Assembly (NCBI GenBank): GCA_965204745.1
Contig: OZ242010.1
Span: 4,704,001-4,768,000 of the forward strand
Direction of reading: 5' to 3'
Source of the DNA: Candidatus Latescibacterota bacterium
Lineage (GTDB): Bacteria > Latescibacterota > UBA2968
DNA length: 64,000 bases
Shown here one piece after another: positions 3,236 through 64,000 of this stretch. The notes beneath the pieces were generated by a model. That model saw only the letters and a program-made list of their open reading frames with translations, was not told the origin of the DNA and did not search any database. Made by a program: the position numbers and the translations under genes. Numbering within the stretch: position 1 is the first letter of the stretch; every line of letters begins with the position of its first letter.

Positions 3236-5615
3236 CCGGCTTGCGCGGGCGTTTCATCAGGGCGGTTTTGAGGACTTGATCCATGTGCGATGCGAATATT
3301 AGTCTGAGGTCCTTGCGCGTGGTGTCGGGGATTTCGCGGGTGTCTTTGCGGTTTGCTTCGGGCAAGATGACGGTTTTCGCGCCTGCTCGGTGTGCTGCCA
3401 ACACTTTGTCGCGGATGCCGCCGATAGGCAACACTTTGCCGCGCAAGGTGATTTCGCCGGTCATCGCCACATCTTTGCGGACGGGCCGGTTGGTGAATAC
3501 CGATGCCAGCACGGTCGCCATGGTAATCCCGGCCGAGGGACCATCCTTGGGCACCGCGCCGGCGGGTACGTGGACGTGTACATCCGCCTTCTCGTTGAAT
3601 TGCGCGTTGAGGTCCAGTTCGTGCCAGCGCGACCGCACGTAGGTCAGTGCGGCATGCGCGGATTCTTTCATCACATCGCCGACCTGCCCGGTCAGATTTA
3701 ACCCGCCCTTGCCGGGCACGACAGACGCCTCGACAAACAGGACATCGCCGCCGGCAGCGGTTACGGCCAGCCCGGCAGCGACTCCGACCTCGTGATCTTC
3801 TTCGGCGACTTCGTAGCGGAACTTTTGTGGCCCCAAGTAGTCGGCCACATTTTTTTGTTGTACGCGCACGCGCCGCTTGCGGCCCTGGGCGAATTTGCGC
3901 GCCACTTTGCGCGCTATGGTTGCGATCTCGCGCTCCAGGTTGCGGACGCCGGCCTCGCGGGTGTGGTACTGAATCACCTCTTGCAGGGCGGCTTTGTCGA
4001 ACGACATGTTTTTTGCGGTCAAGCCGTGTTCTGAAATCTGCCGTTTGACCAGGTACCGGCGCGCGATCTCCAGTTTTTCGACTTCGGTATAGCCCGAAAC
4101 CTCCAACACCTCCATCCTGTCCATCAGCGCAGGGGGAATGGTGTGGAGGGAATTGGCCGTCGCGAGAAACAAGACTTCTGACAGGTCAAAGGCGACGTCC
4201 AAGTAGTGATCCACAAAGGTGTTGTTTTGCGCGGGGTCTAAAACCTCCAACAGGGCGGCCGACGGGTCGCCGCGAAAATCCGCGCCCAATTTGTCGATTT
4301 CATCCAGCATAAACACCGGGTTTTTCGTGCCAGCGCGCCTCAAGCCCTGAATGATGCGCCCGGGCAACGCGCCGATATAGGTGCGGCGGTGCCCGCGGAT
4401 TTCCGATTCATCGCGCACGCCCCCCAAGGACATTCTCACAAATTCGCGGCTGAGTGCTCGGGCCACGGATTTGCCCAGGGAGGTTTTGCCCGTGCCCGGC
4501 GGGCCGACCAGCAACAAAATGGGGCCGCGCATGTCGTTTTTTAAGTGGCGCACGGACAGGTATTCCAAAATGCGCTCTTTGGGTTTTTCCAACCCGTAGT
4601 GGTCCGCATCCAAAACGCGCTCGGCTTTTGTCACGTCCAACTGATCGTCCGTTTTCTTTTGCCACGGGAGTTCGACCAACCAGTCCAGATAGGTGCGCGA
4701 TACGGTGTACTCTGCCGAGGCTTCGGGCATGCGCGCCATGCGATTGAGTTCGCGCTCGGCTTCGGCGCGTGCTTCTTCGGACATGCCCGCGGCTTTGACC
4801 TTTTCGCGCAGGTCTTCTCGTTCGGCCCCCAGGTCTTCGCCTTCGCCGAGTTCATCTCGAATGGCCCGCAGTTGTTGGCGCAGAAAATACTCTTTTTGGG
4901 CATCTTCCATCGACCCCGCGGCTTCCGAACTGATCTTTTCCCGCAATTCCAATATTTCAACTTCGCGGTTTAAGGACTGGTTGATCGCTTCCAAGCGCCG
5001 ATGCAGGTCGCGCTCAGACAGGATTTTTTGTCGTTCTTCAAACCCGATGTTGAGTTGTGAGGCGATAAAATCCGCTTTGTGGGTTATTTCGGAAAGGGCG
5101 TCTAAGGCCGCGCCCACTTCTCGGGGCACGTTGGGGGCGAGGGCTATGGCTTTTTTGAACTGGCCGAATACGTTGCGGGCGAGGGCTTCCAATTCCGTGT
5201 TTTGCTCGACGATAGAGGTCACTTTCTCGACTTGGGCCAGGGGAAAGGGATGCGACTGCAACACGTCTATCAGGGCGAGGCGGGCCATGCCCTGCACGAG
5301 TACCTGCATGCGTCCGTCGGGTGTTTGCGCGGAACGCGCGATGTAGATCGCAGTGCCCACGGGATACAAAAACTCGCGGCGCACGTCTTCCCCGCGTTCT
5401 TCAGCATCGCTCGCTTTGAGTTCTCCGAAAATGGCGATCACTTTGTGCCCGGCGTCTATCGCGTCTTGCGCGGCTTTGATTGCACGCTCGTCTTCCAACA
5501 ACAAGGGCGCGGCCATCAGGGGGTAAATCACCACTTCAGATGTGACCAGCATGGGCAATTCAGAGGGGATGCGATACGCTTCGATTGCGTTCACGCTCGT
5601 TAAGGGGTCTGCCAT
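3216..5615 (-). CDS. lon: ATP-dependent Lon protease
   Basis: LON N-domain, Walker [15 protein letters not shown], catalytic [16 protein letters not shown]. Confidence 0.98.
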
Positions 5616-8599: not shown

Positions 8600-9769
8600 T
8601 CAACGCATCGCGGAACGCTCAAACCGCTCCAGCACGACCCTCAATCCGGCCAGGGGTACGACATCGCGGCGGGAGTGCCGTTTCGCGCCCCCACAGACGA
8701 CCACTTTGCCCGAGATTTGCGGCAACACCCGTGCAATGCGGTTGAGGGCATCGTCTGAGGCAACCGTCGCGCTGGCTTTGATCTCGATTGCGCCGATGCC
8801 ATTGCCATTTTCGTACAAAAGGTCGCATTCCAATCCCCGGGCGTCTCGGAAAAATGACAGGTTGGACCGATAGCCCCGGTTGAACCGGTGTTTGAGTGCC
8901 TCCACGATGACCGCATTCTCAAACAGCGCGCCGCGAAGCGGATGGGTGGCAAGTTGCCCGGCGTGCTCGATGCCGATGAGGTAACTCGCCAGCCCCACGT
9001 CGTAAAAATAGAGCTTGGGGGACTTGACCAACCGCTTGCGTATATTGGCGTAAAACGGCGGGAGTAGGAAGACCACGTAACTCGCTTCCAAAACCGTCAG
9101 CCAGTGCCGCGCTGTGGGGTGCGAAACGCCGGCGTCCGCGCCCAAAGCAGAGAGATTGGCGAGTTGCCCCACGCGCCCGGCGCACAAGCGCACAAACCGG
9201 CGAAAGTTAGACAAGTTGCGAATCTCTCCAATTTGGCGCACATCGCGCTCCACATACGTTTCAAAGTAATCGCCGAGGGCTTGACGCGGTTCGAGTTTTT
9301 GATCGTGAATACGCGGATAACAACCCGAGTACAAAATGTCGTCTATGCGGTCACTCGCGCCGGTTTGTCGCCGTTCATCCAAAGAAAAGGGCAACAGGCG
9401 GAGCAGTGCAGTGCGCCCGGCCAGCGATTGGTTGATCGCATCGGAGAGCCTGAATTGCTCGCTGCCCGTGAGCACGAAAAGGCCGTTTTCGCGCTGTTCG
9501 TCTGCGAGGACTTGCAGGTAGGACAAGAGAATGGGCACGCGCTGGATCTCGTCCAAGATGGCACCACCGCCGAGTTGCGCGAGAAAGCCGCGGGGATCGG
9601 ATTCGGCAAATTCCCGCAGGTCGGGCGCTTCCAAGTTGGCGTACTGGAGATGGGGAAACGCGGCCCGGCAAAGCGTGGTCTTCCCAGACTGACGCGGCCC
9701 GGTCACTGTGACAAAGGGATACTTGCCGAAAAGCTCGACCAAGCAAGGTGTAATCTCTCGCGTAATCAT
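8600..9769 (-). CDS. AAA_14 ATPase with DUF4143 C-terminal domain
   Basis: Walker A GPRQSGKT, LDEIQR, LTGS, KSPKLYFYDVGL, GALFEN, ECDLL...IEIK. Confidence 0.9.
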   Translation of the reverse strand: MITREITPCLVELFGKYPFVTVTGPRQSGKTTLCRAAFPHLQYANLEAPDLREFAESDPRGFLAQLGGGAILDEIQRVPILLSYLQVLADEQRENGLFVLTGSEQFRLSDAINQSLAGRTALLRLLPFSLDERRQTGASDRIDDILYSGCYPRIHDQKLEPRQALGDYFETYVERDVRQIGEIRNLSNFRRFVRLCAGRVGQLANLSALGADAGVSHPTARHWLTVLEASYVVFLLPPFYANIRKRLVKSPKLYFYDVGLASYLIGIEHAGQLATHPLRGALFENAVIVEALKHRFNRGYRSNLSFFRDARGLECDLLYENGNGIGAIEIKASATVASDDALNRIARVLPQISGKVVVCGGAKRHSRRDVVPLAGLRVVLERFERSAMR

Positions 9770-20859: not shown

Positions 20860-20935
20860 TGGTGACCCCGAGGGGAGTCGAACCCCCGTCTCCAGAGTGA
20901 GAGTCTGGTGTCCTAGGCCACTGAACGACGGGGTC
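20860..20935 (-). tRNA. tRNA-Glu (CTC)
   Basis: Acceptor GACCCCG/CGGGGTC, anticodon arm CCAGA-CTCTCAC-TCTGG, GTTCGA T-loop, encoded CCA. Confidence 0.96.
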
Positions 20936-22305: not shown

Positions 22306-22382
22306 TGGTGCGGACGCCAGGATTCGAACCCGGAACCGTCTGATCCGTAGTCAGGTGCTCTATCCAGTTGAGCTACGTCCGC
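22306..22382 (-). tRNA. tRNA-Arg (ACG)
   Basis: GCGGACG/CGTCCGC acceptor, CCTGA-CTACGGA-TCAGA anticodon arm, GTTCGAAT, CCA. Confidence 0.96.
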
Positions 22383-51777: not shown

Positions 51778-52733
51778 GGGACCTACCCCCTAACCCCCGT
51801 TACTCGTTTCACTCGTTGTAGGCTACGCCTGTGCCTGCGAGAAAGGGGGAACAGTGATCGGTTTTGCGAGGGTATTGATGAGGGTTTTTAATCGCTTTAT
51901 GCCCTATCGGGACCTACCCCCCTAACCCCCCTTCCTAAAAGGAAGGGGGGAACAGTGATCGGTTTTGCGAGGGCTTGCGTGGGGGATTTTAATCGCTTTA
52001 TGCCCGCGCTCAAAGCCATCGAAATAGCCCTTGCGTTCAGCTATCAAGCAAGCCCTACTCCCCCTTTCCTCGCAGGAAAGGGGGCCGGGGGGATAGGTCC
52101 CATTGGGCAACGAGGATCGGTTTTGCGAGGGCTTGCGTGGGGGATTTTAATCGCTTTATGCCCGCGCTCAATGCCATCAGAACGGCCATTGATATAAGCC
52201 ATCAAAGGAGCTTTACTCCCCCTTTCCTCGCAGGAAAGGGGGCCGGGGGGATAGGTCCCATTGGGCAATGAGGATCGGTTTTGTGAGGGTATTGATGAGG
52301 GTTTTTAATCGCTTTACGCCCGCGCTCAATGCCATCGAAATAGCCCTTGCGTTCAGCTATCAAGCAAGCCCTACTCCCCCTTTCCTCGCAGGAAAGGGGG
52401 CCGGGGGGATAGGTCCCATTGGGCAATGAGGATCGGTTTTGCGAGGGTATTGATGAGGGTTTTTAATCGCTTTACGCCCGCGCTCAATGCCATCAAAACA
52501 GCCCTTGCGTTCAGCTATCAAGAAAGCCCTACTCCCCCTTTCCTCGCAGGAAAGGGGGCCGGGGGGATAGGTCCCATTGGGGAACAGTGATCGGTTTTGC
52601 GAGGGTATTGATGAGGGTTTTTTAATCGCTTTATGCCCGCGCTCAATGCCATCAGAACGGCCATTGATATAAGCCATCAAAGGAGCTTTACTCCCCCTTT
52701 CCTCGCAGGAAAGGGGGCCGGGGGGATAGGTCC
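51778..52733. repeat. BIME-like mosaic tandem array: five ~158-bp units plus left-end modules
   Basis: The hairpin ccccctttcctcgcaggaaagggggccgggggg recurs with a ~158-bp period. Confidence 0.95.
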
Positions 52734-55552
52734 AGCCTCCCCTGTTCTTCGGTCTTCATCCGCACGAGGATGTCCTGCCACGCTTCGACCAGATGGTTGA
52801 AGATGACCGCGTTTTGGGACTCGCCTTTGCGGTCGTAGTGTTCGTAGAGGATGCGCGCCAAGCGTTCGATAGACTCCACGCTGCCATCCATGGCGCGGGC
52901 CACTTGCGCTGCGCCTTTAAGACCTTCGCCATCGCGCTTGGGGTCCAAGTGATACGCCATGCGGAAACAGCCCTCCCACGCGGTCATCTTGGGCAGGCGG
53001 AGCGGACGGTCAGGGCCGTATTCATCGACCGGTAGCAGGCGCACTCGCCCGGCCCCGGCGGTGAGCAGATCGCGCATGGCTAGGGCGTTGATGGATACGT
53101 TCTTGGCTTGGGCGAGCACCTCGGCGTCGCCGTACTCGCCTTCGCCATAGCCATTCTGCCGAAGCCAGTCCATGCAAAACCGGCTCTCCGCGTCCAAGTT
53201 GCCCTGTTCCCGCTGGTGGTATTCGGCGATGACGCGGTTGATCTCGGTCAATGCCTCGCGCACGGGCACGGGTTCGCCATCGATGGTCTCCACGCTGCGG
53301 TACTGGGAGTAGATTTTCATGCCCGGCCCAATGGCTGCTTGCGCCAAATCCACCGGGGCGATGTGGCCCTCCCGCGTGAGGTGGTCGAGGTCCGCGGGCA
53401 AATCGCGCTCTAAGGCGTCCAAGAACTGGCGGCGCGTTGCCATGGGCGCGTCCTCATCTCGCGGCCGGCAGACCAAGACGACAGACGAGGCCAGCGCGTT
53501 GGTTCCGAGCGAAACGGAACGATTGCCCAACTCGGTTCGCATCGGCCAAGTGCCGATGATCTGAAAACCGGCATTCACCAGCGCGGACAACATCGTATCC
53601 CAACCCGTAGAAGTTTTGCCGCCGCGTTCCATCTCCTGTTGTTTGTAAGCGTAGAAAATGGACGACGGAAATTCCGGGCTACAACGCTTTCGTATCAACC
53701 GCAAGGTTTTGTTCAACAAGTCCTCAAACCGCTCGCGGGAATTTTCAAACCGAAACGGCGTGGCAATCATCTCTTCCGCTTTGGGTACCAGAATGCCGGC
53801 AAACAGATCAGGGTAGATGTCGCGCAACAATGGGCGCAACCATACATAGAAGAAGTCGGAGAGATCTGCGTAACCAATGTTGTCGTAATAAGGCGGATCC
53901 GTAACGATGACGGGACCCGCTTCGGCATAGATGGTCGTTGAGGCGTCGGCTTGGTGCGTTTTGCCTGCATTCGCATCGGAAGGGAGACGCTCGACAGCCT
54001 TTGATATCCATTCAATGTGAGCGAGCCAGTTTCCTGTTGAGTTAGAAAAGGGATTCGATTCGGCAAAATCCCAAACCATCGGGATTGCCTGACGTGCGAA
54101 AATGTTTCTTAACTTTTCACCCGGTACATTCCATGTCGCAAAACTGGAACAATAGTCCGCATTTTTGCCAACCGCCAACGCGAGATAGGTGCGAATCGCA
54201 TTGGCGTATTCCTCATCTGCCCCGTCTTTCATCACCAAATCCCCGACCTCTTTCAGCAGATCGCTAAACGCGGTCAAAGCGGTTAGTTGACGCTCGGTGA
54301 AAAGCTGATGCCAGTGCGTCAACCCGTAAGCCTGCACTCTGAAACCCAAGGCTTGCTTGGGTAGATTGCCAACAGGTCGCCATTTGGGTTTGGCTTTCTG
54401 CGCTGTGCGGATATGCAACTCAGTCGGCGACGCGAACAGCCGTTTGCGATTTCCTTCGGCGACGATGGCGGTCATCACCTCGCCCATCAGGCCCGCCCGC
54501 GCTTGCTCGCGCACAGAGTCCAATCGCACGCCTGCGTTACACGCGATACAGGTCGCGCCATTGCGGTTCACAGTGCCGCCCGTGGGGACGCCGTCGCTGT
54601 GGTCTTGCACCACAAACGAAATGTCCGCGCCCTCGACGACCGGGCGTATCCAGTGCTCATTGCCCTTTTTCTTCGACACTTGGAAGGTTCGCATCAGGGG
54701 CATTGCCGCGCCGCATGTCGGGTTTGGGCAGGGGATTGTGCGCGCCCACAGCCACGCGATCACCGTGGCCTCGCCGCCATCCATCAATCGCACCTTGGGG
54801 TAGAAATGCCCGACGCGCTCGTGTGCCCGTTCGCGCATCCACCGGCCGTAATACCGAATGTCGTCTGCAAGCCCGGCCGCGCCGCGCCATCCGCGGGTTT
54901 TTTTGGATTTACTTTTTTTGGTGGTTATGCCCATCGGGTCCGCATCCGGATTGATCGGTGGGCGGTTGTGGAATTTGGGCGGCAACTCGATCAGGGCTTT
55001 GGTGATGAGCACCGCGACCGGGTTGAGGTCCGTGCCGACTGCTTTCAGCCCTAGGCGTTGCGCCTCCAGCGGAATCGAGCCACCGCCCGAGAAAGGGTCG
55101 TAAATGGGCAATGCCCTGTCCGCCAAAATCTGAAGGGGAGAATAATTATTCTCCCCAACATCCGCCTCCGAGGTGGGCGCTGTCTCGCCGCGGGCGCGGG
55201 CAACAGATCGGGCGATCTCGTATCGCGCCTCTCGCAACAGCGCCTGCACATCGGTCTTGCGCTCGTCCGTGCTCTCCCACTTGACCAACTCGCGGATGAT
55301 CCCGTGCAACCGCTCGCGCTCGGCCCGCTGTGCCTCCTCTGTGGGAAATTCCTCCTCACACGCCGACGGGTCATCCACCATACTGGCAAAAATGACCGCC
55401 CGACACGCCGCCAATGGCCGCCGCGCCCACCACAAATGCAGGGTTGAGGGATGGCCGTGCCGGATGGATTTCTCGCGGGCCGACTCAGCGTTGATCTCCG
55501 CTAAGGGCAGATCGACCTCGATGAGTTTTTTGCGTACTTTTGATTGTTTCAA
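52688..55552 (-). CDS. DUF1156-domain adenine DNA methyltransferase
   Basis: HLWWARRPL, DPFSGGGSIPLEA (motif I), Zn ribbon CPNPTC/CIAC, TDPPYYD (motif IV). Confidence 0.93.
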   Translation of the reverse strand: MKQSKVRKKLIEVDLPLAEINAESAREKSIRHGHPSTLHLWWARRPLAACRAVIFASMVDDPSACEEEFPTEEAQRAERERLHGIIRELVKWESTDERKTDVQALLREARYEIARSVARARGETAPTSEADVGENNYSPLQILADRALPIYDPFSGGGSIPLEAQRLGLKAVGTDLNPVAVLITKALIELPPKFHNRPPINPDADPMGITTKKSKSKKTRGWRGAAGLADDIRYYGRWMRERAHERVGHFYPKVRLMDGGEATVIAWLWARTIPCPNPTCGAAMPLMRTFQVSKKKGNEHWIRPVVEGADISFVVQDHSDGVPTGGTVNRNGATCIACNAGVRLDSVREQARAGLMGEVMTAIVAEGNRKRLFASPTELHIRTAQKAKPKWRPVGNLPKQALGFRVQAYGLTHWHQLFTERQLTALTAFSDLLKEVGDLVMKDGADEEYANAIRTYLALAVGKNADYCSSFATWNVPGEKLRNIFARQAIPMVWDFAESNPFSNSTGNWLAHIEWISKAVERLPSDANAGKTHQADASTTIYAEAGPVIVTDPPYYDNIGYADLSDFFYVWLRPLLRDIYPDLFAGILVPKAEEMIATPFRFENSRERFEDLLNKTLRLIRKRCSPEFPSSIFYAYKQQEMERGGKTSTGWDTMLSALVNAGFQIIGTWPMRTELGNRSVSLGTNALASSVVLVCRPRDEDAPMATRRQFLDALERDLPADLDHLTREGHIAPVDLAQAAIGPGMKIYSQYRSVETIDGEPVPVREALTEINRVIAEYHQREQGNLDAESRFCMDWLRQNGYGEGEYGDAEVLAQAKNVSINALAMRDLLTAGAGRVRLLPVDEYGPDRPLRLPKMTAWEGCFRMAYHLDPKRDGEGLKGAAQVARAMDGSVESIERLARILYEHYDRKGESQNAVIFNHLVEAWQDILVRMKTEEQGRLDLSPRPPFLRGKGE

Positions 55553-55889: not shown

Positions 55890-55945
55890 CCCTACGGGTG
55901 ATGGGGTGCCGCGACTGACTTTTGCCGGATTCTCTTTTTTAAATC

Positions 55946-56287
55946 GTGTTGACATTTTTTTTTTCGTTCCGCACAAATTAGCAAATGTGTTGCTTGCTCA
56001 TCTAAGGCGTTTGGTCCTATAGCCTCGTTGGTTGCCTCCGATGCCTTCGGCGACCTACTTTTTTTCAACAGCAAAAAAAAGTAGGCAAAAAATGCCGCTC
56101 TCAAACGCCGAGAGGCTTGCACAGCGCAAATCGCTTTTGTAACAGAACGATATGAGTCAGCCTGTAAAGTGGGTTGCATAATGGATGTTGGTTGCCAGAC
56201 GGACTTGCGCGCTGTGCGTGATGGCTTTAGCTGATGGGCTTTTGCGATGGCACTTGTTGGGATGCCTGCTTTGAACTGCGGAACGTC
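55946..56287. repeat. Dispersed non-coding element, longest copy
   Basis: 56007-56287 matches 358-637. 55946-56018 matches the reverse complement of 48936-49012. Confidence 0.85.
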
Positions 56288-56383
56288 CGTGAATTTGCAG
56301 ACCGAGAGCATATCCTGCGATAGAGTTTGATTTTCTCGATAAACCGCCCATTCAGTTGCATTGCTCGTAAATGTCAACATAAC

Positions 56384-57043
56384 CTAACACCACTGCGGCG
56401 GCTTTCTGAGGACATAGCCGCTGGCCTTGGCGACCCGCTCTGGCAACTGACTGTCGCTGATTATCCTGCGGCCTATTGTGAACGATGCAGTCGCCGTTTT
56501 GCGAAGTTGTTTGGAAACGCGATTAGGCGGAAAGGCGACGACCACCCGTTTCTTTGGATACCGGTGGCGAACCGCACTTGTCGGGCGTGTCAAATCGCTA
56601 TCGCCTGAGATGATAATCGCCGTGTCGAAAACATCGTCTTGAGCATCGCCGAGCAGTTCAACCGCGATATTCACGTCGGTCATCTTCTCCTCGTAGGTCT
56701 CTTCAACCGCTCCGCACCGGAAGCAAGTTCTGCTTTTTGGCAGAAAGTGTCCGTAGTGGATATGCAAGTCCGGCAATGTTGTTAGGGCCTGCAAGTAAAT
56801 ATCTTGCCGAACCTGTTGATCCATGTCATCGTCGCGCGGCGCGATTTTTGCAGTAAAATACCTGACCATGACCAACCGTTGGCCGGGGCGCAACAACTTT
56901 TCAGATAGACGACGCAGGTCGAGCCAGTAGTAGTGCCGCCAGCCCTTGGACTTGAGGCCGTAGTAGAGATTGAACCCGTCAACGTACACCGACACCCGTT
57001 GTATCGCTGAAGCTACTGGATTCTGAAAATTTAGCCTTGACAT
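56384..57043 (-). CDS. NYN domain (LabA/DUF88, PIN-like) ribonuclease
   Basis: VYVDGFNLYYG, RYFTA, CxxC insert, EEKMTDVNIA, SGDSDL with acidic catalytic residues intact. RBS-like AAAGGTAGGG. Confidence 0.92.
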   Translation of the reverse strand: MSRLNFQNPVASAIQRVSVYVDGFNLYYGLKSKGWRHYYWLDLRRLSEKLLRPGQRLVMVRYFTAKIAPRDDDMDQQVRQDIYLQALTTLPDLHIHYGHFLPKSRTCFRCGAVEETYEEKMTDVNIAVELLGDAQDDVFDTAIIISGDSDLTRPTSAVRHRYPKKRVVVAFPPNRVSKQLRKTATASFTIGRRIISDSQLPERVAKASGYVLRKPPQWC

Positions 57044-57071
57044 ACACGCCCTACCTTTGTATTATTTTGAT

Positions 57072-57137
57072 ACCCCCCCAACGATACCGTCGTTGGCCCG
57101 ACGCTCCTCAGTTCTCAATGAGGGGCGTTTCTTTTTT
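57072..57137 (+). ncRNA. Predicted ~65-nt two-hairpin small RNA, unit 1
   Basis: C7 tract, hairpin ccaacga-taccg-tcgttgg, terminator acgctcctca/tgaggggcgt plus T tract. Confidence 0.65.
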
Positions 57138-57275
57138 GCATCTCCAGTTTCCCCACCTACGCATTCGCTACCGGTTCCTCTCCGGATCCTACCTTTGTAT
57201 TATTTTCAGACCTGTTGTTTTTTTTATTTTCAAAAAAGGATTGACGTACACGCCCTACCTTTGTATTATTTTGAT

Positions 57276-57343
57276 ACCCCCCCATTGATAGTATCTTTGG
57301 GCCGACGCTCTTCAGTTCTCGCTGAGGGGCGTTTCTTTTTTTT
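57276..57343 (+). ncRNA. Predicted small RNA, unit 2
   Basis: C7 tract, imperfect hairpin cccattgat-agt-atctttggg, terminator acgctcttcag/ctgaggggcgt plus T tract. Confidence 0.55.
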
Positions 57344-57476
57344 CTGGTTTCCCCACCTACGCATTCGCTACCGGTTCCTCTCTGGATCCTACCTTTGTAT
57401 TCTTTTCAGACCTGTTGTTTTTTCTCGATTTAAAAAAAGGATTGACATACACGCCCTACCTTTATATCATCTTGAT

Positions 57477-57542
57477 ACCCCCCCAGCGCTAGTACCGCTG
57501 GCCCGACGCTCCTCAGTTCTCGATGAGGGGCGTTTCTTTTTT
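57477..57542 (+). ncRNA. Predicted small RNA, unit 3
   Basis: C7 tract, hairpin ccagcg-ctagtac-cgctgg, same terminator. Confidence 0.65.
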
Positions 57543-57617
57543 GCCTCTCCCGTCTTGCCTCTCCCGTCTTGCGTCTTGTATCTTTTCTCACCTTTCGCAG
57601 TTCCCACTTGATGCGAA

Positions 57618-58391
57618 TTAAGAGGCCAATCTGATGTACCTGTCAATATCGGTGACAGATTTTTCCCGAAAGTCGTTCAGTGCCGGATACTGGGTATCGG
57701 CGTTCTTGGTCAGGTAGGCTCTTTCCTTTTTTCCCAACGCTTCAAAGTCCTCATAAACGACAAGGCTGAAGAACGGCAACTTCTCTTTTTCAAACTCCAA
57801 CAGAGCAATGGCGACATTTTTGGCCTTGTCGTTGCCCGGCACGCCGAAAACATAAAAGTCAACATGTTCGTATTTTAGAAACCAATCTACACTGATGAGA
57901 TATTCAGGGAGCGGGGAATGGTCCGCACGGGGATTAAACCGCTCGAGTTCGGTCGTGACGTATTCCTCCAAATCGTCGTAAAACGCACTGCGGATAATCT
58001 CTCTGCTCCAATAGCGCATATTGCACACTTTTTGCGCGCAACCCGCAAATTGCAATATACTCTCATAGAGTCTGTCCACAGGCGTATCGAGATAGAGATG
58101 GCCCTGATCGTTATGAACGCCGTTGTTGATGAGAATACTGTCAAAAATTCTCTGTCGGGTGTCGGTATTCACCTCGTAAGTGTAGGACAAGCGCATCAGC
58201 GTCATGCCAAAATCGCAAACGCGAACATATCCCGTGCGCTCGGTGCTATCCTGCAAATAGATGTCCACCATATCTCCATCCTCGTGGAGTATGGGCGCGA
58301 TCAACTGGTAATGCCCCGGGCGGCGCTCGTAGAAATCAAAGCCCGCCGCTATCGTGCCGCTCAATGAGGTCCTAATGCGATTGATGTCCAT
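57618..58391 (-). CDS. DUF1828 domain protein
   Basis: PILHEDGDMVDIYL...VCDFGMTLMRL N-domain; C-terminal restriction-endonuclease-like segment (VDW). Confidence 0.75.
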   Translation of the reverse strand: MDINRIRTSLSGTIAAGFDFYERRPGHYQLIAPILHEDGDMVDIYLQDSTERTGYVRVCDFGMTLMRLSYTYEVNTDTRQRIFDSILINNGVHNDQGHLYLDTPVDRLYESILQFAGCAQKVCNMRYWSREIIRSAFYDDLEEYVTTELERFNPRADHSPLPEYLISVDWFLKYEHVDFYVFGVPGNDKAKNVAIALLEFEKEKLPFFSLVVYEDFEALGKKERAYLTKNADTQYPALNDFREKSVTDIDRYIRLAS

Positions 58392-58535
58392 TTTTTTAGT
58401 TTCCCCGCCTACGCATTCGCTACCGGTTCCTCTCCGGATCCTATTCGCGCTGTGAACCTGTCTGAACAGCGACACGTTGAAAACCGATCCGCGTCTTTCG
58501 TCGTTTCGCGCTTCCGCGCTGGACCGACAATCCCT

Positions 58536-59021
58536 TTATCTCGACTTTGATGCCTTGTTGATAGCTTCAGCCAGAGGGCTACCGCATCTCAGCAAATGAA
58601 TGTTGGATCGCTGGTTTCTGAAGCGAATTTGATTGGTTGATTGTTGCAATTTGCGAAGTTCAATGCGATGCACTTTGCCGCCAAAAACAGCGATGGAAAG
58701 AAAAGAAACCTGCTCGTTTCTGGGGATGATTTTCTCGGCAAATTTCGCGCCTGCTTGAAGTTGCTCGATAACTGCTCTGGCCCCGAGACCACCCTTTTTC
58801 AATTCCATCGGCACGAGCCAAACCCGGTCTGAACCTCCGATGAAGATGTAGTCGCATCTTGTTTCGTTCTGTCCAATCGGGAGTTTATCACAATCCATTT
58901 GAATGAGGAAAAACGGTTGTGGTGCATTTTTCAAGCCAACCGAACACCCGCTCATCCCACACTTCCGCGCATGGCATGTCTTGTGAATAGTGGATTGGAT
59001 TCTGCTAACGAGATTTGCCAT
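58536..59021 (-). CDS. Putative PD-(D/E)xK-fold protein coupled to the upstream ATPase
   Basis: RCDYIFIG...PMELKKG...EQLQAG; overlaps the ATPase stop by 17 bp. Confidence 0.65.
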   Translation of the reverse strand: MANLVSRIQSTIHKTCHARKCGMSGCSVGLKNAPQPFFLIQMDCDKLPIGQNETRCDYIFIGGSDRVWLVPMELKKGGLGARAVIEQLQAGAKFAEKIIPRNEQVSFLSIAVFGGKVHRIELRKLQQSTNQIRFRNQRSNIHLLRCGSPLAEAINKASKSR

Positions 59022-60633
59022 GTGCGTTTCCCTCGCCTATCCGACTGGATATTTCCGCATAGTCATTGTACGTGCTGAGGCTGACCTCATCGAAACCGGA
59101 CTGGAAACCGCCAAAATCCACGTCGAGCGGTATTTCCTTTACGACTGACCCCTTGGGCCGTTGCTTCGGCTCGAATAGCCATGCTCCCACTTCGTCTCGG
59201 CTGAGTGCAAAGTCCGCGCTTGCGACACCCCGCCTTTTTGCTTTCGGCAGTTCCGATAACAAGACCAGATTCGCCAATTCTTCTAACACCCACTCGCTGT
59301 GCGTGGTGAGCATCACGCGGACGCCAGAACGCACGACCGCCGCGAGTTGGCGGATAAACGCGACCTGCATCTCCGGGTGCAAGTGAGACTCGGGTTCCTC
59401 GATAATCAGCACATCGCCCGGTTGAACCACATGGCGCAAGTACAACACGACCGGGGCCAACTCCGATACCATTGACGACGCATTCATCAACGGCAGATCC
59501 CGCCGCCAGTTAGTCGGACGATAGACAAACGAAGGATAGTCAATTTCCGACCTCTCAACGCGGACAGTCCCCCCCAATAACGCCCGTTCCAAATCTTGAG
59601 CGAGGACATTCTCGCGTTCGGGGTTGCGTCGAGATGAAGAGGCCAAGGCAACGAGTTGTTCCAGAAAATCCCCGAGAACCCCGGAGAGCACCGGCATCGG
59701 CGTCTCGCGTCTTAGTCCTACACGAGACGCGCTCGCGATCAACCCGCGCACAGCCACTTGATGCGCGTGCATGACGCCGGCGCGGTCAGCGGGAAGGTAA
59801 TACGCCGGGCGACTCAAGGGGCCGATGATGTTAGGAACAACATCTTTGGCAAGCGTTTTAAGCAAATCACCCACAGCACGTTTAGCAAAGTCATCTTTCT
59901 TGTCCAGCCGATTAAATAGCCAATTGACGTTCCTGTTGGTCATCTCCACGGGCCCCAACTTGCGTAATCCTTCATTCATTGCCTCTACCAGCCAATCAGT
60001 GATCCAATTCTCAATAAGGTAGGTATCCTTCAAAGCCACTTGCAAGGACAAGGTATTTGGAATCGAAACATCTAATTTAGCACCTTGCTCTATCACCATA
60101 ACTTCGTGCCCATCAGAGACATTGCATCCGGCGGCCTTTGAGCTATTGCAACGCAGTGAAAATTTTGCCCTGCCATCACTCGGATGACGGATCAAATTTT
60201 TTCCCTTATCCACCCCAAAACATCTGGCGATTTCACTCTCTAAGTTTTCGCTCAAATGCATGGCATTGTTGAGAATTGAGCGTACCAACGCCGCAATGGA
60301 TTCTGGTAATTTAATTGGGTCGGGCTTTTCAGGTTCAGCGGTTTCTAAGCCCGCAATCGTTTCTTTCACCCAAGCAAAAATATTTGAAATGTCATCTTTT
60401 GACACAGTCCGATGTCGCTCGGACAAAAACCGCATGTTGGCCCTTCTGAAACTGGTATCATCGAAGTTTTCACTAAAAAACTGATGCAGTGCGTAAATCA
60501 GAATCGCCAAGTAGGATTTGCCGGTGTTGCTCGGGCCGACGAAGACCGTCAGCGGGCGCAAGTCGATTTCTGCCTTGGCGATGGGGCCGAAGTTGGAGAC
60601 CCTCAGCGCGAGGGATTTTGTGTTGGTCGCCAT
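59005..60633 (-). CDS. ABC-type AAA_15/AAA_21 ATPase
   Basis: NFGPI, GPSNTGKS, signature-like ASSMVSEL, IIEEPESHLHP, TTHS. RBS GGAGG. Confidence 0.9.
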   Translation of the reverse strand: MATNTKSLALRVSNFGPIAKAEIDLRPLTVFVGPSNTGKSYLAILIYALHQFFSENFDDTSFRRANMRFLSERHRTVSKDDISNIFAWVKETIAGLETAEPEKPDPIKLPESIAALVRSILNNAMHLSENLESEIARCFGVDKGKNLIRHPSDGRAKFSLRCNSSKAAGCNVSDGHEVMVIEQGAKLDVSIPNTLSLQVALKDTYLIENWITDWLVEAMNEGLRKLGPVEMTNRNVNWLFNRLDKKDDFAKRAVGDLLKTLAKDVVPNIIGPLSRPAYYLPADRAGVMHAHQVAVRGLIASASRVGLRRETPMPVLSGVLGDFLEQLVALASSSRRNPERENVLAQDLERALLGGTVRVERSEIDYPSFVYRPTNWRRDLPLMNASSMVSELAPVVLYLRHVVQPGDVLIIEEPESHLHPEMQVAFIRQLAAVVRSGVRVMLTTHSEWVLEELANLVLLSELPKAKRRGVASADFALSRDEVGAWLFEPKQRPKGSVVKEIPLDVDFGGFQSGFDEVSLSTYNDYAEISSRIGEGNAHGKSR

Positions 60634-60789
60634 GTTGAATCCTCCTGTGTGTCGCGAGTTTGTCACGAGTTTAGTCGGTGTTTTTCAGGCGGTACACCCG
60701 CTTGTTGATCGCGGCTTTGAGAATCCTTTGAGCGTACTCAATGAAGCCAGCCGCGATCCGATTGCAGGCCCGAGCGGTGAATAGATACG

Positions 60790-63700
60790 CTAATCGTCGG
60801 ATGTGTTCAAGTTCAAATCGAGTTGATGGCTATTCTCGCGCACCGCGCGGGTCGTGCTTTCGGAGAAGCCATCGGCCTTGTGGGCGCGGATGGTGATTTC
60901 GACCGTGATTTCGCCGCCATCGTCTCGCAGGTTGCGGATGATCTCATCGCTCAACATCCGGGCGTCGTCCAAAGAGATTTCGCCCTGCATGGTCTTGGTC
61001 GCGGTGATGCGCCTAGGGCCGCGTGGCGCAGATGGTTCAACGCCCTGTGGTTGTCGGATGTTGTACGGTTCGGCATCCTCCGGCGATGGTTCTGCCGGCG
61101 GGGTTTCTTCTTGAACGAGTTGCGCCATTTCCGGATTGACCAACAGGCCCGAGTCGCCTTCTGCCACGCCGGATGGGGAAGTCGCCATGTCAGTGCCAAA
61201 GCGCAGGTTGTGGTAGTCCTCGTTCTGGTACGCTTCGGCGTACCCAAAGTTGCGGGCCGGCACCCCGCGTTTGATGCAGTCCAACAAGATGGTCTTGTTT
61301 CGCAGGCGGTGCATGTACACGTAGCTCGTCATCATCTCCCAAAGGGCGTCGATGTGGATGTGGTCGTGGTACGCCTTATTTTGCCACACGTATTGCGCGA
61401 GCATACTCGCCAGCGATACCGGGGAGATGGCATCTACGAGGGCCTCTTGCGCGATGAATTTTTCAAACGCGCTGTTGGCGATCTCGCCCGTGTCCTCGGA
61501 CGCGGTTTGGAACGTGGAAAACCCATACTCGGCCCGTTGCGGATCGGCCTGCGTGGGCGCCATGGCCCAGCGATAGGCGCGCACCAGTGCGGTGTCCACC
61601 TCGCCTCGCGCTTGCTTCAAACTGCTGCGCGCCTGGTGCAAGCGGTCGCCCGCGAGATTTGCGATGCGCCGTTCCCCGTGGATGATGGAATCCCACGCCA
61701 GATACGTGCGCGCATTCGCCCGGAGACTGCGGAGGTCGTCATTTCTCGCGGTCAAGAACAGCAGGGTATTGCGGTGAACGCGCGGGGCCTGGCCGCGGTT
61801 TTGGAGAATGTCCTGCGCGACGGGCGTGGCCTCGTCCGTCTCTGCGGCTCGGCTCGGCAGGGACTGGCTCGGATGCAGGATGATGAGACGCACCCAATCG
61901 TCGTCTGGCACCGCAGCGGAACCCTCCGGACAGACGAGCACCTCCCGGCGTTGTCCGATATTCTCGCCCAACTCGCGCACGATGAACTCGGCGAGGGCGC
62001 GGTCGCTCAACTGCGCGGCGCGGTCCGTGGCGACTTTGTTCAGATTTTCCTCGGCGTGAAAGTAATAGCGGTCGTCGTCCGTGTACAAATAATACAGGTC
62101 GCCCACCATCCGTTGCAGCGCGTCATTGTACGCGGAAATCCCGTGCCCCGGTTGCACCACGCCCAAGTGGATGTGGCGGCGGTCGATGCCCTTGACCGCG
62201 CCGCTAGGCGCGCTGCCCAAGAAGATCGCGCGTGCCAAGCGACGGGCCGCGCCGCCCACCTCGGCAAAACGCTGCACCGTGGCGTCGATCCCATCGGCTT
62301 GGGAATGGTCGCTGTCCACCTCGGACAGCACGGGCCGCCATTGCCCCGGCAGCAGGCGGTCAAACTCATTGCCCAAAGAACTGTGGCGCAGCGGCATGGT
62401 GGCGGGCATGATCAAGGGGCCGGCGTCGTTTTGGCGGTACAAGTAGCTGATGCAATTCGCCATCATTCGCAACACCCCGCGCGTGCGTTGGAACTGCGGG
62501 ATGGACGACCAGTCCGCGTAGAGCCGGTCGAAAATTTCCGGGTGGATGGGATAGCAGTCCTTCAGCCGCTGCAAGTATCGGTCTTCGCCGACCCCGGCCG
62601 GATACTCCCCACGGTTCTGCCCGTACATGCGGGAAAAGGCTTGGCAAGTGCGGTCGCGCTCGGCCGCATCCAACTTGTCGCCGAACAGCCGGCGGCGCAC
62701 CACGGCGAACGCCTCGCTGATTTCCAAGGGCTCCCAAACCGCTTCGATGCGCCCGAAAATGTGCTCCAATCGCGCGAGTGCTTCTTGCCCGGCGTCGCCG
62801 CCCAATTCCATGTCGCTTTCCGGCAAGGTGATCACCAATACCACATCGGCCGCGCGGCTGACCGACTGGCTGAGGGCTTGCAAGAAAGTATAGAGGTTGC
62901 CCTCGCGCGTGCTCGGCACATTGCGGACGTACGCCACCAATTCGTCCATCAAAATGAGGGATGGGCCGACCGCGCGGAACAAATCGTCGAGTTGCGCGCC
63001 GCCCGGGGACGTGCCTTCGCGTGCGGCCCGCCCGATGATCTCATACGCCTCCTGCCCGCCCAACTGATACGCCATCTCGCCCCAAAGCGCGTTGCGCGGG
63101 TCCCCGCTTGGCGTGGTTCGCGTATCCGTGGGCGCGAGGTGCGTGCCATCCAAAACCGCGACCGCAGTTTGGGGAATGTCACGAGGAGTCAATCCCGCTT
63201 CTGCGATGAGGGCCGCGATTTCCCGGCTGCTTTGCGAGGTGTCGTTGAGCAAGGCGTCCGCGCTGTTGACCAAGTGGTACAGGGCGATGAGGCTGTGGGT
63301 CTTGCCCCCGCCGAACCCGGTCTTGGTCTGAATCACCGGGTCCCCGCCATTGCCGCTGAGCCGCTTGAGCGCGTTCACGAGCAAGGTGCGAATGCCGGGG
63401 GTGATGTACGTCTGCCGGAAGAAGTTGACCGGGTTGCCATACTCCGAGGCCAGGGCGCGCCCGTCATGCACTTGCTGGAGATCCGCGGCAAATTCGGCTT
63501 CTTGGAACGTGCCCAAAGCCACATCCGAACTCGGGGGCATGACGTCTCGCCAGGCCTTGAGGTCGATAGATGAGCGGGGCTTGCGCGCCGGCTTGGCGTT
63601 TTCGGACTCGGCGGGTGTTTCGCGCGGGGCGGCTTCGCTGACGAGCCGATCCCGGATGCCTTCCACTTCGCGCTTCGCGTCAGATGCGTTGATGCGCCCG

Positions 63701-64000
63701 AGCACGTCGGCAATGTCGTACAAGCGGCTCCGGGCGTATTCTGCGTCCATGTCCCGCGTGTTCGGATGCGCGACTTCGTTGCGGACAGTGACGATCATCC
63801 ACAACAAGCTCTGCACGGTTTTGTCCTCCTTGAACACCCGCCCAAAGACCGCGTGCCACTGCCTGCTGACCAAGTTGGGAAAGTCGTTAATGTCAATCGC
63901 GTCCTCAACGCTGTTGCCCTGCGCCAAGGTCTGGCGAAATTGCTCGGCCTGCCGGTCGTTCAGGGAATTGCTGATCACCTCTTCAACCCGCCTGCCCTTA
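60790..64000 (-). CDS. DUF499 ATPase with N-terminal Swt1-like HEPN domain (5' end outside the window)
   Basis: HEPN RNEVAH, EFAADL, TGFGGGKTH, LMDELV, YPIHPE, FQRTRGVLR. Confidence 0.92.
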   Translation of the reverse strand, partial: KGRRVEEVISNSLNDRQAEQFRQTLAQGNSVEDAIDINDFPNLVSRQWHAVFGRVFKEDKTVQSLLWMIVTVRNEVAHPNTRDMDAEYARSRLYDIADVLGRINASDAKREVEGIRDRLVSEAAPRETPAESENAKPARKPRSSIDLKAWRDVMPPSSDVALGTFQEAEFAADLQQVHDGRALASEYGNPVNFFRQTYITPGIRTLLVNALKRLSGNGGDPVIQTKTGFGGGKTHSLIALYHLVNSADALLNDTSQSSREIAALIAEAGLTPRDIPQTAVAVLDGTHLAPTDTRTTPSGDPRNALWGEMAYQLGGQEAYEIIGRAAREGTSPGGAQLDDLFRAVGPSLILMDELVAYVRNVPSTREGNLYTFLQALSQSVSRAADVVLVITLPESDMELGGDAGQEALARLEHIFGRIEAVWEPLEISEAFAVVRRRLFGDKLDAAERDRTCQAFSRMYGQNRGEYPAGVGEDRYLQRLKDCYPIHPEIFDRLYADWSSIPQFQRTRGVLRMMANCISYLYRQNDAGPLIMPATMPLRHSSLGNEFDRLLPGQWRPVLSEVDSDHSQADGIDATVQRFAEVGGAARRLARAIFLGSAPSGAVKGIDRRHIHLGVVQPGHGISAYNDALQRMVGDLYYLYTDDDRYYFHAEENLNKVATDRAAQLSDRALAEFIVRELGENIGQRREVLVCPEGSAAVPDDDWVRLIILHPSQSLPSRAAETDEATPVAQDILQNRGQAPRVHRNTLLFLTARNDDLRSLRANARTYLAWDSIIHGERRIANLAGDRLHQARSSLKQARGEVDTALVRAYRWAMAPTQADPQRAEYGFSTFQTASEDTGEIANSAFEKFIAQEALVDAISPVSLASMLAQYVWQNKAYHDHIHIDALWEMMTSYVYMHRLRNKTILLDCIKRGVPARNFGYAEAYQNEDYHNLRFGTDMATSPSGVAEGDSGLLVNPEMAQLVQEETPPAEPSPEDAEPYNIRQPQGVEPSAPRGPRRITATKTMQGEISLDDARMLSDEIIRNLRDDGGEITVEITIRAHKADGFSESTTRAVRENSHQLDLNLNTSDD

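Follow-up and report, generated by a model that had tools for sequence, protein, structure and literature searches.

Introduction

In the type III toxin-antitoxin systems ToxIN, CptIN and TenpIN, a protein RNase is encoded next to a non-coding RNA that is often present in several copies, and the pair occurs in a defence setting. Type III toxins adopt the ToxN/AbiQ fold and their RNA consists of repeats of 34-37 nucleotides (nt) that are cut out by the toxin. In type I pairs such as SymE/SymR, RalR/RalA and TisB/IstR-1, a small and strongly promoted RNA lies beside the toxin gene, often divergent from it, and pairs with the toxin mRNA. Here we analyze a locus that shows likeness to both. In the window (the whole stretch of 64,000 nt under analysis, positions 4,704,001 to 4,768,000 of contig OZ242010.1, assembly GCA_965204745.1, from a Candidatus Latescibacterota bacterium), a gene for an NYN/LabA-like nuclease stands head-to-head with an array of three copies of a short, predicted RNA with two hairpins.

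The nuclease belongs to HEC-09, a PADLOC candidate family which Payne et al. (bioRxiv 10.1101/2024.01.29.577857) name among the genes embedded in Hma defence systems and treat, in the sections cited here, as a single NYN/MARF1-like gene. The protein of the window agrees with those sections in matching the same profile end to end, in its embedding in an Hma system, in its MARF1-like NYN fold and in its aspartates. Compared with the same sections, the RNA partner, the covariation of its helices, its reach across phyla and its copies in phages are added here, and the main text of the preprint does not contain the terms 'non-coding', 'ncRNA' or 'small RNA'.

Based on linkage, covariation and conserved unpaired bases, we consider it very probable that the RNA and the NYN protein form a functional pair. 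That the RNA is a type III-like antitoxin, directed against an NYN protein that serves as toxin or defence effector, and that phages mimic it, is a reading that we favour with more restraint. The likeness to type III systems lies in the combination of an RNase with an adjacent, often multicopy RNA in a defence setting. The likeness to ToxIN in particular extends to the order of promoter, RNA, terminator and nuclease gene in one related locus (L116) and in nine of nine loci of a paralogous clade.

Results

An Array of Three Predicted RNA Units Opposite the NYN Gene

A preliminary description of this DNA, made from the sequence alone, had proposed three tandem units of ~200 base pairs (bp), each with a near-consensus promoter and a terminator hairpin and together encoding RNAs of ~65 nt. 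Repeat search, promoter scan and folding bear this out, and the elements concerned are:

56384-57043, minus strand: NYN/LabA-like nuclease gene, 219 amino acids, PADLOC candidate family HEC-09 (Pfam and PADLOC profiles)
57037-57065, plus strand: promoter of RNA copy 1, TTGACA-17-TATTAT, 11/12 matches; its -35 box overlaps the NYN start codon on the opposite strand
57072-57137, plus strand: predicted RNA copy 1, with tail ACCCCC, P1 CCAACGAU/GUCGUUGG, terminator hairpin P2 and U tract
57138-57240, plus strand: spacer 1, holding a second copy of the promoter-spacer segment and a segment shared with the DUF1828 upstream region (58401-58445)
57241-57269, plus strand: promoter of RNA copy 2, TTGACG-17-TATTAT, 10/12 matches
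57276-57343, plus strand: predicted RNA copy 2, with P1 weakened by a UU/UU internal mismatch
57344-57441, plus strand: spacer 2, 87% identical to spacer 1
57442-57470, plus strand: promoter of RNA copy 3, TTGACA-17-TATCAT, 11/12 matches
57477-57542, plus strand: predicted RNA copy 3, with P1 CCAGCG/CGCUGG

The units span 57037-57543 and are underlain by a 124-nt repeat family with copies at 57014-57137, 57218-57341 and 57419-57542, spaced by 204 and 201 nt, of which the outer two are 79 and 85% identical to the middle one. The order within each unit is promoter, 5' tail, variable hairpin P1, linker and terminator hairpin P2: an A stands seven bases past the -10 box, the C-rich tail comes next, and P1 is followed by a short linker and by the G+C-rich P2 with its U tract. 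A promoter scan of the plus strand returned exactly these three sites. As this raw count is no higher than in shuffled sequence (2.3 +/- 1.5), it is the quality and the register of the sites that carry weight, not their number. Terminator-like hairpins were found at 57100-57129, 57304-57333 and 57505-57534. The start codon of the NYN gene (complement of 57041-57043) indeed falls within the -35 box of unit 1, as first proposed.

The predicted RNAs are 66-68 nt long and share one shape, an unpaired 5' tail plus two hairpins, which accounts for 0.51-0.66 of the ensemble; the alternative fold suggested earlier, in which the C tract pairs with the GGGG of the terminator, is not favoured. Scored with the RNA model R1 (see below), copies 1, 2 and 3 reach 69.8, 65.7 and 73.3 bits (E 2.5e-17, 4.5e-16 and 2.1e-18), with folds of -28.1, -26.2 and -27.3 kcal/mol (z -5.4, -4.5 and -3.9), respectively. 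The differences between the units are concentrated in P1, as had been noted, and those between units 1 and 3 are compensatory. The accompanying claim that pairing is kept holds for these two units; unit 2 has its internal mismatch.

The possibility that the triplication is an assembly artefact was addressed with Logan contigs (three runs from two studies), which are short and break inside repeats. The junction of units 1 and 2 (57166-57276) is covered without differences and is thus real, while the junction of units 2 and 3 is covered less cleanly, by one contig with 7 gap letters in run X1 and by short pieces in run X3. The spacers point to growth of the array by local duplication, since they hold a second partial promoter copy together with a 45-nt segment that is also present near the DUF1828 gene. 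This segment, at 58401-58445 upstream of that gene, recurs in both spacers, at 57146-57190 and 57346-57390. A second repeat family of the array, 106 nt in two copies, also lies within the spacers. BLAST, the covariance model and regular expressions find only three RNA copies in the source genome, all in the array, which rules out for this genome that the motif is scattered independently of the NYN gene.

A Structured RNA Family Outside Rfam

In Rfam 15, no family reaches its gathering score with the RNA of the window, nor with the RNA of seven loci of other lineages. The best match below threshold is ctRNA_pGA1 (RF00236; E 0.16), which likewise has two hairpins, the second being a terminator. 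Membership was rejected at 23.1 bits (gathering score 45); only the terminator contributes to the match, and no replication gene is found nearby.

The covariance model R1 was built from an alignment of 47 RNA copies. In 92 matches from metagenome loci, 96.9% of the cells in R1-based pairs are paired compared to 78.4% in shuffles, changes occur on both sides in 14 of the 16 pairs, and the covariation score amounts to 0.566 versus 0.227 in shuffles (0/500 reach 0.566) and at most 0.164 in slid controls; the underlying alignment (A3) was fitted to the model, and the pair counts therefore lean towards structure. A MAFFT alignment of the 47 copies shows the same compensatory pairs, for instance GC in 24 and AU in 21 copies at one pair of P1. 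Both helices of the RNA covary and its structure is under selection.

The stems vary, whereas a set of unpaired bases is conserved: A1 (0.88), C2 (0.98) and C5 (0.94) in the 5' tail, the N-A-G-Y-A loop of P1 (0.81-0.90), and A44 (0.99) and C45 (0.98) at the base of P2. Family-wide, the tail has the consensus A-C-N-N-C-N, and the stem then begins with C-C. Consequently, the C7 tract highlighted in the preliminary description is present in the copies of the window as a lineage trait and does not stand as a feature of the family. Extra RNA copies, some of them promoter-less and some more than 200 nt away, keep the structure by compensatory change. Two candidate roles were discarded: a C-rich anti-Shine-Dalgarno seed, as the C run is not kept throughout the family, and a mimic of a transfer RNA (tRNA) anticodon loop for the P1 loop, as the GAGUA variant does not fit. 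The RNA is a well-supported new family that is absent from Rfam.

Reciprocal Linkage of the RNA and the NYN Gene

Searches from the protein side and from the RNA side lead to the same pairing of RNA and gene. Collecting the regions upstream of NYN homologues and running a covariance model on them, the check recommended in the preliminary description, gave an R1 match at E <= 1.5e-4 directly upstream of the NYN gene in 78 of 80 metagenome loci. These were found via NYN peptide patterns alone and represent the best 80 of 523, at 37-58% identity; kin, here and in the other counts, are not independent. The two misses (L089, L102) offer only ~100 nt upstream of their NYN start, which is below the usual geometry. 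Within the genus of the source genome, all nine strong HEC-09 hits (286-304 bits, in eight genomes) have an R1 match at a distance of 71-222 nt, and the RNA is present in 12 of 20 other genomes with one to four copies each. Ten genomes that represent the other five genera of the family gave no RNA copy. Four of four core-type loci in a further genus of the order are divergent and have strong R1 matches. The linkage reaches a cultured organism with plasmid pTHEOS01 of Thermus oshimai JL-2, where an NYN gene (205933-206550) is preceded by a divergent RNA at E 2.7e-15; the HEC-09 model also matches in a Thermus thermophilus control genome.

In the opposite direction, a pattern scan of a genome collection for the RNA alone yielded 38 stretches from four phyla, with record titles naming Dehalococcoidia/SAR202, Caldilineaceae, Candidatus Latescibacterota, Phycisphaerae and Bryobacterales. 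All 38 have a terminator and a suitably spaced promoter-like site. The NYN profile matches 30 of them (29 by tblastn), 24 with the gene whole in one piece and six with a split or partial gene (L024, L036, L037, L041, L050, L053), and has no match in the other eight (L025, L028, L034, L038, L054, L055, L057, L059). The RNA thus persists where the NYN gene is broken (6/38) or absent (8/38). In L037, L054 and L057 it adjoins an HmaB-like gene; the first of these keeps a 26-residue NYN remnant and the other two keep none. Among the 80 metagenome loci and in the genus, there is no testable intact NYN gene of the core clade that lacks the RNA. The linkage between RNA and gene is therefore reciprocal and crosses phyla, and together with the covarying helices and the lack of an Rfam family it supports the RNA-partnered NYN system that had been proposed for this locus.

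These counts bear on the idea that the RNAs are ordinary trans-acting small RNAs with a C-rich seed, or promoter and terminator debris, and that their adjacency to NYN genes is incidental. The C-rich 5' tail of the window copies is reminiscent of known small RNA seeds, and the spacers show local duplication and reshuffling. Yet, the C run is not family-wide, no copy exists elsewhere in the source genome, the RNA accompanies 78 of 80 protein-found loci, and the gene or its remnants accompany 30 of 38 RNA-found loci. Spread of one recent element is also at odds with protein identities of 37-82%. We regard this explanation as highly improbable.

Some loci place other genes beside the RNA. In two RNA-found stretches without NYN, the divergent gene, as judged by eye, encodes a 195-residue protein with a DUF3800-like YVDETG start (L038, 4113-4885) or a 284-residue protein with a T5orf172/GIY-YIG-like look (L034, 757-1709), and the unit of RNA and promoter may be shared by other effector genes. 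In L005 (1134-1511) and L053 (~3960-4395), an RNA copy is divergent from a 125-residue open reading frame of unknown family that starts with MLTDRQIRD and is not NYN. On the 3.5-kilobase E. coli plasmid NZ_CP063347.1 (L169), two hairpins and a U tract (838-918) lie divergently upstream of an NYN homologue with 39% identity; these score only 7 bits with R1 and may represent a diverged version of the RNA.

Orientation, Geometry and Promoters

Across 77 loci, the start of the RNA lies 39-107 nt (median 62) from the NYN codon aligned to residue 15, and the two are divergent in every locus of this set. In many loci both the start codon and the ribosome-binding site of the NYN gene fall inside the RNA promoter, so that any NYN mRNA with a leader must start in or beyond that promoter. 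A separate promoter for the NYN gene was not found on the minus strand, neither by scan nor, as conserved -10 and -35 boxes, by eye. The RNA promoters are of the TTGACA/TATAAT type in most loci and of the TAnnTTTG type, which we take to be Bacteroidota-like, in loci of low GC content; they follow the host.

The tight divergent spacing, the overlap with the RNA promoter and the lack of a separate NYN promoter would suit a type I-like or cis control in which the RNA acts on NYN expression, either as an antisense to a long 5' leader or by competition between divergent promoters, as the preliminary description had also envisaged. The orientation is not fixed, however. In L116 a canonical RNA with its promoter lies upstream of the NYN gene on the same strand. 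In the same genus as the source genome, a paralogous NYN clade (217-220 amino acids, without the CxxC pair) is preceded by a related RNA as a co-directional leader, consisting of a ACCACCCC tail, a hairpin and a terminator, which ends ~10 nt before the gene in nine of nine loci. These paralogue RNAs are weak R1 matches (19.5-22.7 bits), and a second RNA unit precedes the leader in four of the nine loci. Leaders of this kind are also seen, by eye, with remoter paralogues from two further families of the phylum (L189, L191). A co-directional RNA cannot be antisense to the gene, and its retention in both orientations indicates that overlap with the NYN leader is not what conserves the RNA.

Further observations point in the same direction. 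In 73 loci, the complementarity of the RNA to the start region of its own NYN gene does not exceed that to two internal control regions (p 0.74 and 0.92), although overlap with a longer leader may exist in the divergent loci. Pairing in cis does not require unpaired bases that are conserved across phyla, nor does it account for extra copies, promoter-less or more than 200 nt away, that maintain their fold by compensatory change, and the phage copies without NYN described below have no antisense target. The lack of extra complementarity, the flips in orientation and the conserved unpaired bases are also what would set the system apart from the type I pairs. Cis-antisense control and promoter interference are weakened accordingly, and we rate them as rather unlikely.

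The strand of the gene beyond the RNA was also called with crude open reading frames (28 same, 17 opposite, 7 none, 24 too short); such calls are unreliable in GC-rich DNA and were left unused.

The NYN Nuclease

The protein matches the Pfam NYN domain PF01936 with 54.9 bits (cut-off 24.2; E 1.8e-14) and the PADLOC profile PDLC04163 (HEC-09) with 286.4 bits (E 2.7e-86), the latter from position 2 to position 202 of its 203. Two alignments, one with 18 and one with 32 homologues, show D22, D123, D148 and D150 to be invariant, as are C107, C110, an FPPxR motif and a C-terminal P...W. The active-site role of the aspartates is based on the comparison with MARF1 in the cited sections of bioRxiv 10.1101/2024.01.29.577857. 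By sequence, the catalytic set is intact. An AlphaFold2 model (predicted local distance difference test score, pLDDT, 90.4) is nearest, according to Foldseek, to the LabA-like protein 2QIP (E 7.2e-10), with the NYN domains of MARF1 (6FDL, 5YAA) at 4e-6 to 1e-4. A sequence search of the PDB gave as its best match only 2QIP at E 0.38, and no NCBIfam model matches the protein.

HEC-09 is a large and unusually conserved family. It comprises 4512 protein clusters at E <= 1e-5, most of them of ~206 amino acids, and the best 120 clusters share 62-99% identity and are mostly 206 amino acids long. A literature search, with subscription journals and supplements outside its scope, returned no paper linking NYN proteins with an RNA antitoxin or an RNA motif. 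A paper on a Thermus RNase was set aside as a precedent because it concerns another NYN-like protein.

RNA Copies in Phages

A core pattern of P1 and the junction retrieved 38 stretches with 30 distinct RNA copies from a viral collection, and all 30 submitted loci match R1 at E 2e-18 to 4e-5. The NYN profile matches a single one of the 38 stretches (L225). Flanks of 800 nt or more on each side are available for 21 distinct copies, and 20 of these lack an NYN gene. The neighbouring genes encode a holin, a baseplate wedge protein, an exonuclease, two small terminase subunits and a scaffold protein, and the carriers are therefore phage genomes and not stray host DNA. Many of the viral copies stand directly after a stop codon, and others have their own -10 box. 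The exception L225 contains the full pair of NYN and divergent RNA (8781-9502) near a head scaffolding gene, which implies that some phages carry the whole module.

Two cultured phages from GenBank are among the carriers. Dolichospermum phage Dfl-JY45 has the RNA at E 2.8e-13, and its entire record contains no NYN. Thermus phage phiLo (host on record, T. thermophilus HB8) contains the RNA at E 1e-16 together with an NYN remnant of the first 22 codons only. Some 185 nt are nearly identical between phiLo and the T. oshimai plasmid and include the 5' codons of NYN, the shared promoter region and the RNA; the likeness ends at the terminator, and the -10 box reads TATAAT in phiLo versus TTTAAT in the plasmid. 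Judged from this comparison, the RNA gene of phiLo looks as if captured from the NYN locus of a host. RNA-only phages are reminiscent of phage PhiTE, which escapes ToxIN by expanded pseudo-ToxI repeats or by a hijacked ToxI, as far as described in the cited parts of PMC3475682.

The phage copies also help to weigh the idea that the RNA contributes positively to the nuclease, as a subunit (cofactor, scaffold or specificity element), and does not inhibit it. Obligate linkage and conserved bases in loop and junction are compatible with any stable complex of RNA and protein, and a heterologous RNA that is not made or is misfolded in E. coli would equally leave HEC-09 inactive, as reported in the cited sections of the preprint by Payne et al. 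In contrast, an RNA that activates a host nuclease would hardly account for RNA-only phages, including the apparent capture by phiLo. In addition, the RNA genes outlive broken NYN genes, and the variable parts of the RNA are covarying stems, which leaves no free variable segment to serve as a guide. A positive role of this kind thus appears quite unlikely.

The Hma System and the Neighbouring Sequence

The defence-island setting suggested earlier is confirmed by the two genes that flank the module, both on the same strand as the NYN gene between them, and by the identity of the NYN protein itself as HEC-09:

52688-55552, minus strand: HmaB DNA methylase of the Hma defence system (PADLOC HmaB E 1.6e-300; Pfam DUF1156)
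60790-63978, minus strand: HmaC ATPase of the Hma defence system (PADLOC HmaC E 2.4e-241; Pfam DUF499)

The Hma system also encloses three further genes, at 57618-60666. They encode a DUF1828 protein that is PDC-M24B-like (E 8e-14), an AAA_15/AAA_21 ATPase that is PD-T4-4_A-like (E 2e-39) and a protein of 161 amino acids without a family. This trio recurs in the related genomes L005, L053 and L048 in a different order relative to the RNA. The start annotated at 58475 for the DUF1828 reading frame probably reads through the non-coding 45-nt segment, as homologues begin near residue 29.

Repeats surround the module. A dispersed repeat of ~87 bp at 56301-56389 has more than 110 copies in the source genome (83-92% identity) at very high contig depth. 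The open reading frame at 55892-56380 (162 amino acids, no family, no homologue in any related locus) is doubtful because its start overlaps this repeat. At 57541-57568, a 14-nt unit (TTGCCTCTCCCGTC) occurs in two tandem copies, and short arrays like it are found at ~120 places in the source genome, a few of which adjoin the 87-bp repeat. A low-depth joint of 56379-57556 (side 21) was considered as an empty site and judged to be a product of the dispersed repeats that flank the module. Elsewhere in the window, two tRNA genes lie on the minus strand at 20863-20935 and 22309-22382 (Rfam tRNA, 61.6 and 63.1 bits).

Discussion

We propose that a ~60-nt RNA with two hairpins is the constant partner of HEC-09 NYN (PIN-like) nucleases and would act as their antidote. 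The RNA outlives lost or broken NYN genes, no testable NYN gene of the core clade is without it, and phages carry it alone, which together cast the RNA as an antidote to a harmful nuclease. The flips in orientation, the promoter-less tandem copies and the lack of complementarity argue for a folded RNA that acts on the protein and not on the mRNA. The RNA-only phage copies offer indirect support, at the level of sequence, for an RNA that binds and inhibits the toxin.

According to this model, the RNA would be made in excess from strong promoters, in the window from three copies, and the folded RNA would bind and silence the NYN RNase. Upon infection, a phage that shuts down host transcription or degrades host RNA would prevent the short RNA from being replenished, and the freed nuclease would then cut RNA and abort the infection. 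The answer of the phage would be to supply RNA copies of its own. We infer transcription of the RNA, toxicity of the NYN protein, its inhibition, direct binding and the trigger from the patterns described above, and direct binding of RNA and protein is the least secure part of the antitoxin reading.

Several points weigh against this proposal. In the only published test (Payne et al., bioRxiv 10.1101/2024.01.29.577857), E. coli with HEC-09 was not protected against the coliphages tried, and toxicity is not noted in the sections cited. NYN homologues with 31-39% identity are found on small E. coli plasmids without a convincing R1 match. The pair counts come from an alignment that was fitted to the model, as stated with the counts. 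The tight divergent spacing suggests some coupling at the promoter level, which a purely trans-acting RNA does not need, but such coupling may be layered on top of an action in trans. The phage copies could serve another purpose, as many follow a stop codon and have no promoter of their own. Finally, the system departs from type III in its toxin, which is NYN/PIN-like and not of the ToxN/AbiQ fold, and in its layout, where the units of the window are divergent, ~200 bp apart and each equipped with a promoter and a terminator, in contrast to the short co-directional tandem repeats of type III RNA; its ~60-nt RNA with two hairpins also differs in size from repeats of 34-37 nt. Because of the toxin fold and the layout in the window, the RNA-NYN pair is proposed to work like a type III system and not to be a member of that type.

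A wider reading is that the pair represents a new and widespread class of RNA-antitoxin defence modules with a PIN-like toxin, spread horizontally over at least five phyla and actively countered by natural phages that repeatedly captured the RNA gene, with phiLo as a cultured example. We hold the arguments for and against this wider reading to be about evenly balanced. If it is correct, the negative test of HEC-09 would reflect the choice of phages or host, or a silencing RNA within the construct. The constructs in that test took ~150 bp upstream of the gene, according to the cited sections of the preprint, and a stretch of this length would usually include one RNA copy.

In summary, HEC-09 is listed as a single-gene candidate, and a constant structured RNA alters the definition of the system and the way in which its cloning and assays are to be designed. 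Cultured carriers are at hand in the Thermus oshimai JL-2 plasmid, Thermus phage phiLo and Dolichospermum phage Dfl-JY45. To our knowledge, the RNA-antitoxin systems described so far amount to three related families. If the RNA of the HEC-09 nucleases is an antitoxin, it would add a new toxin fold and a new gene layout to such systems, and its copies in phage genomes would represent a natural and widespread case of a phage RNA decoy.

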